From the NCBI GenBank assembly GCA_039801725.1, contig JBDRVE010000005.1, forward strand, positions 3,370-67,369: a DNA stretch of 64,000 nt, written 5' to 3'. Source of the stretch: a candidate division WOR-3 bacterium (GTDB taxonomy: Bacteria > Hydrothermota > Tepidihabitantia > Tepidihabitantales > DTDR01). This document shows positions 3,254 to 47,452 of the stretch, in pieces. Position 1 is the first letter of the stretch. Every line of letters begins with the position of its first letter. Both the position numbers and the translations under genes were made by a program. The notes beneath the pieces were generated by a model that searched no databases, was not told the DNA's origin, and saw only the letters and a list, made by a program, of their open reading frames with translations.

Positions 3254-4705
3254 ATGAGAAGAGAAATTATTTTAATAATTGGTTTTTGTGTTTTGTCTTT
3301 TGCGTTAGGTTTTATCGTTTCTCCCCTGAAAGGAAAAGAAAAAACCTCTCTGTATGTCCAAAATGTTTCTCAACCAGTTTTAGAAGGAAAACCAAACTTA
3401 CCAACAAATAACATTTCTTTTGTTGAAGTTGCGGAAAAGATTATTCCGACAGTAGTAAATATTTCTGCTGAAAAATCAATAAAAATTAGAACACCGGGTT
3501 TTGAATTTTTCTCACCCTTTGAAGATTTTTTTAGAGAATTTTTTAAAGATTTCCCTTTACCAAAAGAATTTAGTGAGAAAATAAGAACCTTAGGAAGTGG
3601 TGTGATAATTTCGGAAGACGGTTATGTAATTACTAATAATCATGTAATTGAAGGATATGATAAAGTAATTATTACTCTTTCTGACGGAACAAAATTTAAA
3701 GAAAAAGAAGTAAAAATTATTGGTCGCGATTCAAAAACTGATATTGCTCTGTTGAAGATTGAAACAAAAAAGAAACTTCCCTATGCCCCCTTAGGTAATT
3801 CTGATGAAGTGAGAATTGGTGAATGGGTGATGGCAGTGGGTAATCCTTTTGGTTTATCGGGTACGGTTACCGTTGGAGTTATATCGGCTAAACATCGAAC
3901 CGGTATTGATCTTTATGGCGGACCAACTTACCAAGATTTCATCCAAACCGATGCCGCAATAAATCCAGGAAATTCCGGTGGTCCCTTAGTAAATTTGAAA
4001 GGTGAAGTTATTGGTATCAATACGGCAATTAAAACCACTTCTGGTGGGAATATTGGAATCGGTTTTGCTATTCCAATTAACTTAGTGAAAAAAGTGAAAG
4101 ATGATTTGTTAAAAAGAGGGAAAGTTGTCCGTGGTTATTTGGGGATTTATCTTCAAGAATTAACGGACGAGTTAAAAGAATCGATGGATTTACCCAAAGA
4201 TTTGGAAGGAGTGGTTATAAGAGATATTATCCCTAATTCGCCTGCAAGTAGAGCCGATTTAAAATCGGGAGATGTGATTTTAAAATTTCAAGGCAATAAA
4301 GTAAAAAGTGTTGATGAATTGAGATTTATGGTTGCTGAAACTCCCCCTAATACTAAGGTAGAGCTAGAAATTTATCGCGATGGTCGAGTTCGGAAAGTGA
4401 CTGTGGTTTTAGGAGAAATGCCTGAGGAAGTTTCCCAAGTTAAAAAGGAAGAAGTTTTAAGCATCGGGTTGCGAGTAAAAGAAACAAAAGAAGGTGTTGA
4501 AGTAGAAGAAGTGGAAGCAAATTCGCCAGCGGAAGAAGCTGGTATCCAGGTTGGTGATATTATTTTAGAAATTCAGAAAGAAAAAGTTAAAAATTTGGAT
4601 GATTACTATCGTCTTTTGGAAAGATTTAAAGAACGGAAGTCAATTCTTTTTAAAATAAAAAGAGGAAATGAAATTTATCTCATTCCTCTTCGTCTCAAAG
4701 AATAA
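3254..4705 (+). CDS. htrA: HtrA/DegP-family periplasmic serine protease with two PDZ domains
   Basis: Catalytic triad contexts NNHVIEG, DIALLKI and GNSGGPLVN; two PDZ-like C-terminal segments; N-terminal signal/anchor. Confidence 0.9.
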   Translation: MRREIILIIGFCVLSFALGFIVSPLKGKEKTSLYVQNVSQPVLEGKPNLPTNNISFVEVAEKIIPTVVNISAEKSIKIRTPGFEFFSPFEDFFREFFKDFPLPKEFSEKIRTLGSGVIISEDGYVITNNHVIEGYDKVIITLSDGTKFKEKEVKIIGRDSKTDIALLKIETKKKLPYAPLGNSDEVRIGEWVMAVGNPFGLSGTVTVGVISAKHRTGIDLYGGPTYQDFIQTDAAINPGNSGGPLVNLKGEVIGINTAIKTTSGGNIGIGFAIPINLVKKVKDDLLKRGKVVRGYLGIYLQELTDELKESMDLPKDLEGVVIRDIIPNSPASRADLKSGDVILKFQGNKVKSVDELRFMVAETPPNTKVELEIYRDGRVRKVTVVLGEMPEEVSQVKKEEVLSIGLRVKETKEGVEVEEVEANSPAEEAGIQVGDIILEIQKEKVKNLDDYYRLLERFKERKSILFKIKRGNEIYLIPLRLKE

Positions 4706-5499
4706 TGGTCAAGGATCTTCCTTCTTATTATTTTTTCTTATCCCAACAGTATCCCGATCTTTCTCGCGAAGAAGAACGAGAACTGATTGAAAAGGCAAAA
4801 AAGAATAATTATCAAGCTTTTTCTAAACTTATTTTATCCCATCTTAAATTAGTAGTAAAAATTGCTCAAAAATATCGTTCAAAAAATTTATCTTTGGATG
4901 ATCTAATTGGAGAAGGGATAACCGGTTTGATGGAAGCGATTCATAAGTTTGACGAAAAGAAGAATGCGCGTTTAGCCACTTATGCTGCCAAAAGAATTAA
5001 ATACCGAATAAGAGAAGCGATATTTAACGAGGCTATTTTCCATTTTTCTCCTAAGATTCAGAAATTAGCGAAAAAGATAAAAAAAGAACCTCCCGAAATG
5101 CTTTTTCAACCTGAACAATTGGCAAAAAAGTTTAAGGTACCATTAAGTGAGGTTAAGCAAGCAATAAATTTTTTAAATTTAGCCCGCTTTAATTTAGAAG
5201 GAGAAGAAACTTCTGAAGAGAATCCTATTCTAGTTAACGAAACTCGAGAAACTCAATTTGAAAAGGTAAATATAAAAAAAATTGTTAATGAGTGTTTATC
5301 ACAACTCACCGAGAGAGAACGTTTGGTTATTAAAAAGGTTTTTGGTTTGCCCCCTTATAAAGAACCCGAGAGTTTAACAAAGATTGGTAAGGATTTAGGA
5401 CTTTCAAGGGAAAGGGTCCGACAGATTCGTAATGAGGCGCTTAAGAAATTGCGTCGATTTTTAAATAAAAGGCTTAATCTTATTTCTTTCTTTTTGTGA
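4705..5499 (+). CDS. RNA polymerase sigma factor, sigma-70 family (regions 2 and 4; probably an alternative sigma)
   Basis: Region 2 DLIGEGITGLMEAIHKFDEKKNARLATYAAKRIKYRI and region 4.2 HTH LTKIGKDLGLSRERVRQIRNEALKKL; the start overlaps the htrA stop (TAATG). Confidence 0.8.
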   Translation: MVKDLPSYYFFLSQQYPDLSREEERELIEKAKKNNYQAFSKLILSHLKLVVKIAQKYRSKNLSLDDLIGEGITGLMEAIHKFDEKKNARLATYAAKRIKYRIREAIFNEAIFHFSPKIQKLAKKIKKEPPEMLFQPEQLAKKFKVPLSEVKQAINFLNLARFNLEGEETSEENPILVNETRETQFEKVNIKKIVNECLSQLTERERLVIKKVFGLPPYKEPESLTKIGKDLGLSRERVRQIRNEALKKLRRFLNKRLNLISFFL

Positions 5500-6479
5500 T
5501 TTTTTTTCTACTATTTTTCTTCAATTCTCAATTAATACCCCTTTCTCCCCAGTTAAATATTTTAGGAGTTGATTTTGTAAATTTGGTATCCGATTCAGAG
5601 ACAGATATTTATTTAAACCCTGCCAATCTTTTTTTCTGGAATAAAAAATTTTTCTTTTCTTTTTTTTCTTACCACGACTATCTTTCTTTGGATACCGGAT
5701 TACCTGTTTCTTTCCAGAGTCTTTTAAGTATCAAAGGGAATAAAAAAGATTTTATTTTTAATATTTCTTATCACTATCTTTTGAGTTATAGGAAAACCAA
5801 AGAGAAAACGGTCTTTTTAGATTATCTTAATCTGCCCATTAGTTTTAATTATAATTTGGAGGAAATAAAAATTGGTTTAGGAGTTAGTTACCAAGAATTT
5901 TATTTAGAAAAGAGTACTATCCATCAAAATTTTATCGAAAAAAAAAGATATTTGCCCATTAAATTAGGTTTTTCAAAAGGAGAAGAAGAAAGGTTTGAAT
6001 GGGTTACTCAATTTATTTCCTTTGAAAACAGTTTTTGTAATTACCAAATAAATTTGATTGCCAAAAAAGTAATTGGTGAGATTGACAAGCATATTTTTCT
6101 TTTGGACGTAGATTATCGAAAAGAAAATAACTTAAAAAGTTGGGAATTTTTAGGCGGTTATTGTTTATCTTCTTATTACAATTTTTATGGTTTTATTCTT
6201 AATAATTTTTTTGCTATGAAACCTTTATTATTTTTAAAAAAAGAAGTAACTATAAAAATAATTTTTCCTTATGGATTAATAGGTTCTTTTGGTAAAATAA
6301 AATTTCTCTTTGGTTTAAAAAATGGTTTAATTTGGGAGAAAGAAAATATTTGTTTTACTAATTATGAATATAATTTTGGTTTAAATTATCGATTTTCAAA
6401 TAATTTCGAATTTTATTTTTTAAATCTTTTGGTAAATTCCTCGCGAAGGTGGTTTTTCGGATTTAAATTTTCTTTTTAA
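5496..6479 (+). CDS. hypothetical protein, possible outer-membrane beta-barrel
   Basis: Rich in F/Y/N/G alternating segments and a C-terminal ...GFKFSF ending in Phe; overlaps the sigma-factor stop. Confidence 0.4.
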   Translation: MIFFLLFFFNSQLIPLSPQLNILGVDFVNLVSDSETDIYLNPANLFFWNKKFFFSFFSYHDYLSLDTGLPVSFQSLLSIKGNKKDFIFNISYHYLLSYRKTKEKTVFLDYLNLPISFNYNLEEIKIGLGVSYQEFYLEKSTIHQNFIEKKRYLPIKLGFSKGEEERFEWVTQFISFENSFCNYQINLIAKKVIGEIDKHIFLLDVDYRKENNLKSWEFLGGYCLSSYYNFYGFILNNFFAMKPLLFLKKEVTIKIIFPYGLIGSFGKIKFLFGLKNGLIWEKENICFTNYEYNFGLNYRFSNNFEFYFLNLLVNSSRRWFFGFKFSF

Positions 6480-6500
6480 TTTTTAAGAAACTTTTTCTTT

Positions 6501-6737
6501 TTGTTGGTATCTAAAAATATGGTTATGAGAGAAGAGATATTATTACTAATAAAAAAACTACATAAAAAAGAAGAAAAAGTTCCCTTTAAGAAACCTATTC
6601 TGCTAAATTTTTTAGAAATTGAAGAGATTGTTAAAGCTTTTCACTCTGAAAATCGTAATCTTCTTTGGGACGAAATTGTTTCGATTTTTGAAAAGATAAA
6701 AAATTTAAAAGAAAAAAATCAGAAAAATTCTTCTTGA
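6501..6737 (+). CDS. hypothetical small protein (78 aa)
   Basis: ORF only; charged and helical; low confidence that it is real. Confidence 0.3.
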   Translation: MLVSKNMVMREEILLLIKKLHKKEEKVPFKKPILLNFLEIEEIVKAFHSENRNLLWDEIVSIFEKIKNLKEKNQKNSS

Positions 6738-6810: not shown

Positions 6811-9829
<3,019 letters not shown>

Positions 9830-9858
9830 TCCGCTTCTTTTATCATTAAAATTTAAAC

Positions 9859-9977
<119 letters not shown>

Positions 9978-10167: not shown

Positions 10168-10809
10168 ATGTTAAACAAAAAGGGCTTTACATTAATTGAA
10201 TTATTAGTGGTAATTTTAATTATCGGTATCCTATTAGCACTTATTATCCCCAACTTCGCACTTTTCCAAGAAAGAGCAAGAAGAACAAGCGTCAAAAACA
10301 ATATGCACGTAATTCAAACTGCCTTAGAGGCATGGGCATCTGACCATATGGGCCAATATCCAACCGAAGATGTAGTGGGTGATGTTCTTGACCCAGAGGG
10401 TCCTTTAGCTTATTATTTTCCTGGCGGTGACCCATTGATCGAAGATAAATTTGGTAATTTCCCATCCAACCCCTATACCGGTACTGTTTATAATGGAGGA
10501 GATTATGAAGATCTTTTTTATGGTGGAGATTTTCTATTTGAGGAACCTGGTTTGAACGCTGTGACTTGGGGAGGTTCTGAAGTAGCAGAGTGTCCTTATC
10601 TTGAATGGGCAGATGCAGTAGAGGTTTCAGGAGCAATCGCTGTAGGTGTTTATTATGATCCCGCAACTGAGATTGCTCAAGAGTATGGAATTGCTGGTTG
10701 GGGTAGACTTAATGAAGTAGGTGAAAATTATCCGATGTACGATGTAGCACCGGGTGCGGAAGATCCCTTTGAACCAGAATATTGGAACTTCTTTGTGCTT
10801 CACAACTAA
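10168..10809 (+). CDS. type IV pilin / pseudopilin with a prepilin-type N-terminal methylation domain
   Basis: N-terminus MLNKKGFTLIELLVVILIIGILLALIIP is the class III signal with G-F and E+5; the acidic Gly/Tyr-rich C-terminal domain uses noticeably more GC-rich codons than the neighbouring genes. Confidence 0.85.
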   Translation: MLNKKGFTLIELLVVILIIGILLALIIPNFALFQERARRTSVKNNMHVIQTALEAWASDHMGQYPTEDVVGDVLDPEGPLAYYFPGGDPLIEDKFGNFPSNPYTGTVYNGGDYEDLFYGGDFLFEEPGLNAVTWGGSEVAECPYLEWADAVEVSGAIAVGVYYDPATEIAQEYGIAGWGRLNEVGENYPMYDVAPGAEDPFEPEYWNFFVLHN

Positions 10810-15255: not shown

Positions 15256-15643
15256 CGTTTTTATCTAATTGGTAACTTGCTAATGGTTATTTAATTGATT
15301 AAGGTATCATTACCAAATATAAGATAGTAGCTCAAAGTAATTATTAGAAAATCATTAAAAATTTTATTCCATTAGTTTACATCCAATAGACTGGTACCTG
15401 ATTATTACTCAAAATAAGTTAATAAGAATAGGAAGAACTTTCAGATAGAATACATAAATAAAAAATGAAAATAGAGAATTTTTTTAGTTCTTAATGGTTA
15501 TCATAGTTTATAATCTTTTTCGAGATTAAAGTCTATACTATCTCCTATACAGTTCCCTTCCCAATAGAAGGTAAAATCCCCTTGTCTTATTAATTTAGGT
15601 TTTAGAAAAATATGGGAAAGGGCTAATTTATTTAGTCAATTAA

Positions 15644-15847
15644 TTAAAGGAAATATACTTCGCTAAGCACCTCCTTTCTAAGTCTTTTTCTTAATAATCT
15701 TCTATTAAACAAATATTCTAACCCTCTCAGTCTTTCTAAAAGGTAATATCTATAGGTTAAGTTAGAATAATTGCCAAAAAAAGATGGAAAGTATTTCCTA
15801 ACCTTTTTTCTAAGTTGTTTATAAGATTGATAGATATCTTTTACCAT
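15644..15847 (-). CDS. small basic protein of unknown function (67 aa, YRYY motif); copy A of a two-member family in this window
   Basis: RBS AAAAGGAAA 5 nt upstream; identical in length to copy B, with the YRYY motif at the same position encoded by different synonymous codons; a conserved promoter-like TTATATATA lies upstream. Confidence 0.6.
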   Translation of the reverse strand: MVKDIYQSYKQLRKKVRKYFPSFFGNYSNLTYRYYLLERLRGLEYLFNRRLLRKRLRKEVLSEVYFL

Positions 15848-15958
15848 AATTATTTCCTTTTATATATTCTCTATATATAAGACGAAAAAATAGCCCAAAA
15901 GGTTACCACTTTTTTTATTATGCCGGCAGACTATATTTTATACTGAAATTCTTTCTAT

Positions 15959-15986
15959 TTGACTTTTAGAAAAAATGAATTATAAT
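15959..15986 (+). promoter_or_regulatory. promoter TTGACT-N16-TATAAT for the downstream secreted-protein gene
   Basis: Consensus boxes; the track's 15975 ATG falls inside the spacer, so the real start is 16020, which has an AAAGGAGG RBS. Confidence 0.6.
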
Positions 15987-16019
15987 CTATTGGTTTTAAT
16001 TAATAAAAGGAGGAAAAAT

Positions 16020-46917: not shown

Positions 46918-47081
46918 AATATCAAAACCAAAAACTTTATGATTTTTCAATATTGATCTTTAATTATTATACTTTTAAATATTGGATACTATACTATCTC
47001 TTATACAGTACCCTTCTCAAAAGAAAATAAAGCCCTCCTGTTTTATTAATGTAGGTTTTAGAAAGTATATAAAAGGAATAT

Positions 47082-47285
47082 TTATTTAGTTATTAAATAA
47101 AGAAAATCAAAAACTTTAAGCACCTCCAGTTTAGGTTTATTTTTCAACAACTCCTTCTTAACTAAAATTCCAAAATCTAATTCTCTTTTTATCCTATAAT
47201 ACCGGTATTTTAATTCCCAATAATCTAAGCCCATTATCTTTAAGTTATTCATACCATATTTGGATTTATTACCATAAATAATCAT
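47082..47285 (-). CDS. small basic protein of unknown function (67 aa, YRYY motif); copy B
   Basis: Taking the internal ATG (MIIYGNK...) gives exactly 67 aa as in copy A, with RBS AAAAAGGAAGAG; the track's longer 77-aa form (to 47315) is the alternative start. Confidence 0.55.
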   Translation of the reverse strand: MIIYGNKSKYGMNNLKIMGLDYWELKYRYYRIKRELDFGILVKKELLKNKPKLEVLKVFDFLYLITK

Positions 47286-47396
47286 AATCTCTTCCTTTTT
47301 ATCTATTCTCCCCATATATATAATACGGAAGAGTACCCTAAAAGGTTACCACTTTTTTTTATTTATCTAACATCTCTTAATGTCTATTCTTTCTTA

Positions 47397-47424
47397 TTGA
47401 CATTTAGAATAACTTTGTTATACT
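47397..47424 (+). promoter_or_regulatory. promoter TTGACA-N16-TATACT for the lipoprotein-serpin genes
   Basis: Near-identical to the copy A promoter context (TTCTTTCTTATTGACATTTAGAA); leader with AAGGAGG RBS. Confidence 0.55.
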
Positions 47425-47452
47425 CAAAAGTTATGACTAAAAAGGAGGAAGT

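Follow-up and report, generated by a model that had tools for sequence, protein, structure and literature searches.

A 64-kb stretch of the chromosome of a hot-spring candidate division WOR-3 bacterium (below, "the window" means the whole of this DNA) contains two alignable modules in identical orientation, at positions 15533-15987 (copy A) and 46989-47425 (copy B), each with a small basic open reading frame (ORF) on the minus strand. The two modules are probably internal-deletion relics of a lineage-specific operon that is chromosomal in WOR-3 and related bacteria and whose two genes, referred to here as gene1 and gene2, would be paralogs with the fold of the SIRV2-type viral capsid proteins. 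Both copies retain a promoter-like element and a leader that includes a ribosome-binding site, then pieces of gene2, and last the conserved 3' tail, while the part of gene2 that would encode the helical bundle is missing. The modules may still be transcribed leftward from a promoter resembling those of alternative sigma factors of the extracytoplasmic function (ECF) type.

Conservation is distributed unevenly along the modules. The minus-strand promoter block is 86% identical between the copies, the 56-nt tail core and the remaining 3' region 80% each, the plus-strand sigma70 block 77%, the ORF interior 47%, and the spacer between the minus- and plus-strand promoters 36%, against 42-54% for DNA beyond the module ends. 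Since identity reaches 80-86% in the promoter and the tail versus 47% in the interior, selection would maintain two cis elements rather than the peptide. Four shared blocks, CTATACTATCTCYTATACAG, TTATTAATKTAGGTTTTAGAAA, AAAAGGTTACCACTTTTTTT, and TTCTTTCTWWTTGACWTTTAGAA, occur exactly twice each in the window with up to three mismatches permitted, against 0-0.2 matches expected from shuffled sequences for each block. The sequence-only reading from which this analysis started had described two alignable regions in the same orientation, with flanks more conserved than the coding DNA and with a repeated unit that takes in the promoter region. All of this is borne out, the flank similarity being well beyond random expectation, and further copies are present in related genomes; of the blocks quoted in that reading the four main ones recur as stated, while GGAATATTTATTTAGT and CCTAAAAGG are inexact in copy B.

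In copy A, the minus strand carries the tail core (15533..15588, ending in ...GCAGTATAGGAGATAGTATAG and including two GTATAG units 12 nt apart), the rest of the conserved 3' noncoding region (15589..15643, with TTTCTAAAACCTAAATTAATAA... and ACTAAATAAAT), the relic ORF of 67 amino acids (aa; 15644..15847), and the bipartite promoter-like element (15875..15916), which consists of an A-tract at 15910-15916, GGTAAC at 15902-15907, a 17-nt spacer, CGT at 15882-15884, and TATAT at 15875-15879. The shared plus-strand block at 15949..15987 has a sigma70-type promoter, TTGACT-16-TATAAT, at 15959-15986, ahead of a divergent 572/587-aa gene. Conservation breaks off sharply at 15533. The corresponding parts of copy B on the minus strand are the tail core (46989..47044), the rest of the 3' noncoding region (47045..47081), the relic ORF (47082..47315), and the promoter-like element (47318..47360; A-tract 47353-47360, GGTAAC 47345-47350, a 17-nt spacer, CGT 47325-47327, TATAT 47318-47322); on the plus strand, the shared block at 47387..47425 has the sigma70-type promoter TTGACA-16-TATACT at 47397-47424 ahead of genes for a TRL-type lipoprotein and a serpin.

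A full-length copy of the operon is absent from the window. It was found in L021, L033, L035, and L037 and on a 1.56-Mb contig, and consists of the same promoter, gene1 (120 aa), gene2 (105 aa), and the conserved 3' tail. In L021, the start of gene2 overlaps the stop of gene1; the gene2 product has STYKYYYQ near its N-terminus, and its C-terminal end KLEKEVLKELYFLLLKGK is followed by the conserved tail ...ACAGGAGGGATTTACTTTCTATTATAAAAGGGGCAGTATAGGAGATATTATAG. Across several WOR-3 genomes gene2 is 59-79% and gene1 73-99% identical, and the upstream neighborhood is kept as well. Differences among orthologs by codon position (19/12/40 in gene2 and 26/15/47 in gene1) concentrate at third positions, hence both are real genes under purifying selection. 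When mapped onto this operon with blastn, copies A and B and five others (L007, L009, L010, L020, and L031) all keep the promoter and the tail together with the final ~29 codons of gene2; copy A additionally has ~7 codons from the start of gene1 and gene2 codons ~1-27. Elsewhere, P0022, P0027, and P0028 are called proteins that represent other deletion or fusion forms. The view of A and B as internally deleted, diverged paralogs of the capsid-like operon is well supported. Two loci show peculiarities of their own. The degenerate module at L030:690-859 has its -35 part altered to GCGATAATC and a 28-nt tandem duplication (TATATATTTTATAAAATCTATATTAAT) in the 3' region, with the tail core intact, and some 60-170 nt past the promoter end of the relic in L020 (~5120-5230) there is a GC-rich stretch (...CCAGGGCCGGAAGGCAGCAACGG..., other strand) that by eye resembles a signal recognition particle RNA gene.

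The relic ORFs can be read as pieces of the parent genes. ORF A begins with about seven gene1-like codons (MVKDIYQ, similar to MVRNAYQ), continues with the gene2 N-terminal arm including TYRYY, and ends with the C-terminal helix RKEVLSEVYFL, the central helices being deleted. ORF B retains KYRYY and the C-terminal portion of gene2, ...LLKNKPKLEVLKVFDFLYLITK. In gene2, both align only to the N-terminal arm and to the final helix, and the segment with the invariant residues Y57 and F60 is deleted from both; with the bundle core lost, A and B cannot themselves belong to the fold family. Neither ORF has a match in Pfam. The 67-aa protein of copy A has five close relatives (75-100% identity), all in WOR-3 genomes or hot-spring metagenomes, on contigs syntenic with the window (LptD, module, 572-aa gene, DNA polymerase III delta).

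ORF A evolves without current protein-level constraint. Between the window and L001 it shows one synonymous versus eight non-synonymous codon changes, with differences distributed 3/4/3 over the codon positions and no excess at the third; a 1-nt deletion in L002 and L003 shifts the frame and alters the C-terminus, and an otherwise near-identical metagenome copy, L032, has a nonsense change (TAC to TAA) within the YRYY motif. The conserved GGAGGTGCTTAA, which in full-length gene2 provides the codons for K-E-V-L-K, falls in a different reading frame in L009 and L031, as expected of pseudogenes, and the relic ORFs vary from 23 to 83 aa across copies. Whether GGAGGTGCTTAA might signal a frameshift or serve as the ribosome-binding site of an ORF downstream was considered, and both ideas were rejected: no conserved start codon follows it, and it encodes K-E-V-L-K.

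These results change the picture of a conserved 67-aa protein that had been drawn from the letters of the window. The length is right for copy A, whereas ORF B has 77 aa when started at the ATG that lies 9 nt past the CGT, and 67 aa only from a second ATG at 47285. The YRYY codons are as quoted in both copies; the motif itself, said to lie at identical positions, occupies residues 32-35 in A and 27-30 (67-aa reading) or 37-40 (77-aa reading) in B, and EVL, said to end both proteins, is followed by six more codons in A and 12 in B. The selection at the protein level deduced from the YRYY codons does apply to the ancestral family, where TY[KR]YY and KEVL are motifs of the 105-aa protein, and does not apply to ORF A. 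Similarly, the suggested nucleic-acid binding is plausible for the parent family, whereas the window ORFs are truncated and lack the core helices and the invariant Tyr and Phe.

Neither the gene1 nor the gene2 protein could be assigned to a Pfam or PHROG family, and a gene2 profile run against 1.8 billion representative proteins found ten proteins only. The top structural matches of the parent proteins are capsid proteins of archaeal filamentous viruses, namely AFV1 ORF140 (3fbz; scores 12.1 and 11.0), AFV1 ORF132 (3fbl; 11.5 and 10.4), the SIRV coat protein (3f2e; 11.0 and 11.0), and the SSRV1 structural protein (6wq0; 10.9 and 10.6). In the predicted structures an N-terminal arm helix precedes a C-terminal four-helix bundle, the arrangement of the SIRV2 fold. 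In Foldseek searches of BFVD, the best probabilities and TM-scores belong to a protein of 140 aa, as long as AFV1 ORF140, and to the SIRV coat protein. Profile-profile comparison points in the same direction: the 11-member bacterial gene2 alignment matched SIRV2 ORF134 together with AFV1 ORF132 and ORF140 over 80 columns in hhalign (Prob 86%, E 5e-6), and the match strengthened when protein P0029 was added (Prob 97%, E 4.5e-10). Comparisons with the initial shallow alignments were not significant, and the match of gene2 became significant only once distant bacterial members had joined. The bridging P0029 matches the gene2 profile with E 6e-4 among 1.8e9 proteins and the Sulf_coat_C family with E 6e-9 (36.6 bits versus a cutoff of 25.2); its gene adjoins an integrase and a Sulfolobus_pRN-like gene. 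In a joint alignment with the viral proteins, one Tyr and one Phe are invariant, and the motifs (I/V)L..(Y)GI......Y..F and GL..(E)VL..I are common to both sides. As judged by hhalign (Prob 96%, E 5.6e-9), gene1 and gene2 are paralogs of each other. Five of the eight gene1 family proteins P0014-P0021 also show sub-threshold similarity to PF19011 (DUF5740), with a best E of 7e-4.

The operon does not have the setting of a virus genome. It lies in chromosomal contexts among housekeeping genes, including that on the 1.56-Mb contig, and distant family members (L039-L042) are likewise paired genes in bacterial housekeeping contexts. No relatives were found when IMG/VR was scanned with both proteins, the promoter, and the tail, the scan returning three matches to a 19-mer of the promoter that lack the rest of the element. 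A tblastn search of gene2 against phage records gave no match, and HMMER searches of the PDB sequences with both family profiles gave no capsid match.

The block AAAAGGTTACCACTTTTTTT, read on the minus strand, is a two-part promoter-like element, GGTAAC-N17-CGTnnTATATA, laid out as an A-tract, GTGGTAACC, 17 nt, and CGTnnTATATA. When one genome per species was scanned for AAAAGGTTACCACTTTTTT, 23 loci were found, 12 of them from three WOR-3 genomes, with nine of these 12 from the assembly JBDRVN01 (nine contigs). A 13th locus, L006 (JAWAJM010000123.1), is labeled Aenigmatarchaeota and yet carries the WOR-3 full-length operon; its gene1 copy is very similar to that of L021, and the contig is probably of WOR-3 origin and mis-binned in an archaeal assembly. 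In 18 distinct copies of GGTAAC-N17-CGT the length of the spacer is fixed and its sequence variable; both window copies fit this pattern, with a chance expectation of 0.02. The element is located 9-40 nt upstream of the start codons of differing genes: small basic ORFs (A, B, L007, L009, L010, L020, and L031), HTH_17/excisionase-like genes of 79 aa (L012, L014, L023, L025, and L027; Pfam E 6e-9), and a 120-aa gene (L021 and L006).

Promoters of ECF sigma factors have a comparable form, for instance TGAAAC-N16-CGTA for sigma-W and TGTAAC-N17-CGAC for sigma-X of Bacillus subtilis, as well as the sigma-M consensus. The element shares with them the AAC motif at -35, the CGT at -10, a fixed spacer of variable sequence whose 17 nt fall in the usual 16-17 nt, and a position ahead of several unrelated genes, and by this resemblance we regard it as a predicted promoter. 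It differs in that its conserved upstream part, AAAAAAGTGGTAACCTTTT, is much longer than a -35 hexamer, in the TATATA run after the CGT, and in the loss of CGT in distant lineages. Contrary to the sequence-only reading, this most conserved block is the predicted promoter of the small gene itself, and it also stands before such unrelated genes as those of HTH_17 type.

Several further observations concern the promoter copies. The HTH_17 genes (MKLYL(S/T)xEEKxKIK...; L012:83-101, L014:7549-7859, L023:6450-6651, L025:3383-3401, and L027:3352-3370) are in several cases truncated and in several cases at contig ends, a pattern suggestive of another multi-copy element that this promoter controls; the L023 gene is followed by one for a 233-aa protein without a family match, and L012 has a second, degenerate promoter block (AAAAGATTACTACTTTTTTTATTATTGACA) at ~230-270, ~150 nt from the first. 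In copies of the B type (window 47313-47327; L010, L020, L022, and L031) an ATG exactly 9 nt after the CGT (CGTATTATATATATGGGG) opens the entire relic ORF, and the mRNA would be leaderless if transcription started at that ATG. An imperfect inverted repeat of 18-19 nt, 83-84% complementary, is present at 15849-15891 and 47289-47333, with one arm in the promoter spacer and -10 region and the other in the leader and ribosome-binding site; other promoter copies do not show it clearly. The sole sigma factor seen in the window is a 264-aa protein encoded at 4705-5499, with regions 2 and 4 (Pfam E 1e-13 to 4e-17).

The second conserved element is the tail. Its last 56 nt align without gaps across 12 distinct copies with a mean pairwise identity of 83% and end sharply at GTATAGGAGATAGTATAG. 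The tail of copy A is homologous to the tail that follows gene2 in the full-length operon and to the starts of repeat arrays in three distant lineages (L038, L039, and L042), where the homologous tail (...GGAG(C/T)G(A/C)TACA(A/G)...), directly after the gene pair, continues into an array that is free of gaps and repeats every 12 bp exactly. The array of L039 (10183-10410) has 19 units of GATATnnnnnnn, the best-matching stretch by Tandem Repeats Finder being 10215-10403 with 15.8 copies; that of L042 has ~19 units of YTAAnnnnnnRT, and that of L038 ~10 units of nnnSCTATTnnn. In each of the three arrays, autocorrelation at lag 12 is above the 95th percentile of shuffles, and for L038 it is higher than in any of the 500. 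In the window lineage, L033, L035, and L037, the GTAKAK units, 12 nt apart, number only two or three, and periodicity past two units was looked for and not found downstream of the window-lineage tails. In L039 the array is annotated as part of a 96-aa gene (10168-10458) with GDIxGDIx repeats; this ORF is probably a repeat artefact. No ORF spans the equivalent array of L042. A small RNA of the anti-Shine-Dalgarno kind, read from the plus strand, was considered and rejected, as there is no conserved promoter upstream of CTATAC.

One capsid dimer of the archaeal filamentous viruses covers 12 bp of A-form DNA (PMC6105669). The coincidence of this footprint with the array period is suggestive of a phased DNA-binding site. 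In the reading that we prefer, the tail would be a cis element, acting as DNA or as an RNA 3' end, that serves the capsid-like proteins of a full-length operon elsewhere in the genome, and whatever function the modules have would depend on the role of the tail. A specific 12-bp loading site is a more daring interpretation of the same element, which we put forward tentatively and would not expect to hold in most such cases. We are just as hesitant about its fuller version, in which a vertically inherited capsid-like pair of the heterodimer type loads onto DNA at the tail (10-19 phased 12-bp repeats in some lineages, two GTATAG units in the window) and relics A and B provide extra loading or regulatory sites.

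A number of results weigh against the interpretation as relics of a capsid-like operon kept for their cis elements. The structural models are of moderate confidence (predicted local distance difference test scores of 76 and 66), Foldseek found no BFVD match at E<=0.001, gene1 showed no significant hhalign similarity to the viral capsid proteins, and the matches of the WOR-3 proteins to Sulf_coat_C and MCP_C are sub-threshold (E 0.04 and 0.006). The promoter is called from its architecture alone, in which CGT is replaced by CCT in L039 and by ACT in L042, and the role of the tail is one that we infer. Copy B has three synonymous and three non-synonymous changes, too few to decide on constraint. 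Finally, the ORFs of A, B, and L010 stay open over 67-83 codons of AT-rich DNA, longer than chance leaves, so that some relic peptides may still be made.

The last point leads to the most plausible of the rival explanations, itself rather unlikely, that ORFs A and B encode working small basic proteins, either two-helix capsid-like fragments that regulate or cap full-length assemblies or nucleic-acid binders. This comes close to the sequence-only reading. ORFs of 67, 77, and 83 codons (A, B, and L010) open right after the promoter and a ribosome-binding site, TY[KR]YY and K-EVL-K..YFL are in frame in A, B, L007, L010, and L020, and the A protein is called in five clusters with 75-100% conservation; yet near-identical orthologs include the nonsense and frameshift alleles, substitutions in ORF A lack a synonymous or third-position excess, the relics differ widely in length with GGAGGTGCTTAA out of frame in two of them, and the Y57/F60 core of the family is absent. 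A less probable explanation, to which we give little credence, dispenses with the ORF and treats the module as a gene for a 200-350-nt small RNA that would act, in trans or in cis, through its conserved 3' tail. It would account for an ORF interior free to vary and for a tail conserved like coding sequence and gap-free over the 12 copies, with three purine-rich motifs (GGAG, or GGAGG-like) whose pairing with a pyrimidine segment could take alternative forms (AGGAGG/CUUUCU/AGAAGG hairpins). However, RNAalifold gave no convincing consensus fold on either strand of the tail (-2.2 and 0 kcal/mol), single-sequence folds are mutually inconsistent, Rfam returned only noise for both copies at gathering and permissive thresholds, neither copy has an intrinsic terminator, and the strictly 12-bp-periodic array of distant lineages is more in keeping with a site on DNA than with RNA folding.

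Mobility of the module, proposed in the sequence-only reading, has about the same low probability as the small RNA. The module would be a non-autonomous element, internally deleted, with its cis ends kept, and moved by a factor encoded elsewhere. As in miniature inverted-repeat transposable elements (MITEs), there are several copies per genome, at unrelated intergenic sites, and in all of them both ends are kept and the middle is lost; the borders at the A-tract and GTATAG are sharp, and assemblies often break at promoter copies. Unlike MITEs, the modules have no terminal inverted repeats linking their two ends and no target-site duplications, a check for direct repeats flanking the copies at the module borders, with the flanks also compared by eye, giving none. 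A and B occupy the same, syntenic sites in several related genomes, no transposase or integrase adjoins the full-length operon, its upstream neighborhood is conserved between WOR-3 species, and relatives in IMG/VR are lacking; mobility is thus not demonstrated. All three alternatives are possible explanations, less well supported than the one based on conserved cis elements.

With the modules regarded as deletion relics kept for their cis elements, the plus-strand sigma70 promoter would be the other half of a duplicated divergent-promoter region and would drive whichever gene adjoins it. The shared promoter context noted earlier for this strand is real, both promoters being strong, with 11 of 12 consensus positions. 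As to the genes downstream, Pfam confirms a TRL-like lipoprotein and a serpin next to copy B, whereas the type IX secretion system C-terminal domain ascribed to the 572-aa neighbor of copy A could not be confirmed, this protein having no Pfam match at E<=0.001. A cassette that specifically fronts secreted or surface proteins is ruled out by the diverse neighbors of 12 copies: elsewhere the divergent genes are housekeeping genes of many kinds, encoding nucleotidyltransferase-like, phosphohexomutase-like, and metallo-beta-lactamase-like proteins, a P-type ATPase, and membrane proteins.

Apart from the modules, the window contains 23S and 5S rRNA genes (6814-9976), with protein-coding ORFs before them (5496-6737). 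No 16S gene is adjacent to them within the window, and the rRNA operon thus appears to be unlinked from 16S.

The closest known counterparts of the parent proteins are the capsid pairs of the archaeal filamentous viruses, which make up the realm Adnaviria (AFV1 ORF140/ORF132, SFV1 VP4/VP5, and SIRV2 ORF134; Sulf_coat_C PF12193 and MCP_C PF21660), to which they are linked by the structural matches, the profile-profile match, and the common motifs. As with gene1 and gene2, the two capsid genes of AFV1 are in tandem with overlapping stop and start, and the 12-bp-period arrays that adjoin the bacterial pair parallel the 12 bp per capsid dimer (PMC6105669). The WOR-3 genes differ in being bacterial and chromosomal, with conserved housekeeping neighbors, no other viral genes near the pair, and a family absent from IMG/VR; their products are shorter (105-125 aa) and fall below the Pfam thresholds, and the copies in the window are fragments without the bundle core. 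Capsid folds in vertically inherited cellular genes under purifying selection are also found among cellular and domesticated capsid homologs, such as double jelly-roll proteins (PMC8812541) and recruited mobile-element genes (PMC8987985), whereas the WOR-3 case concerns the SIRV2 fold. In a 2024 review, the major capsid protein of Adnaviria is a unique alpha-helical protein, and the realm is described as confined to archaea and unconnected to viruses of bacteria or eukaryotes (PMC10848233); we found no report of bacterial or cellular homologs of this protein in the searchable literature.

For the window itself, the lesson would be that the apparent conserved small protein is a gene relic and that selection acts on a lineage-specific promoter and on a 3' element. 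If the relationship holds, the Adnaviria capsid protein would gain its first cellular relatives, in bacteria, and the WOR-3 pair would represent either the capsid ancestor or a domesticated copy serving as a DNA-coating protein in a thermophile. A bacterial gene pair with the capsid fold and 12-bp repeats would make the origin of this capsid testable, as descent from a cellular ancestor versus domestication, and would point to a possible new kind of DNA-coating system in thermophilic bacteria.

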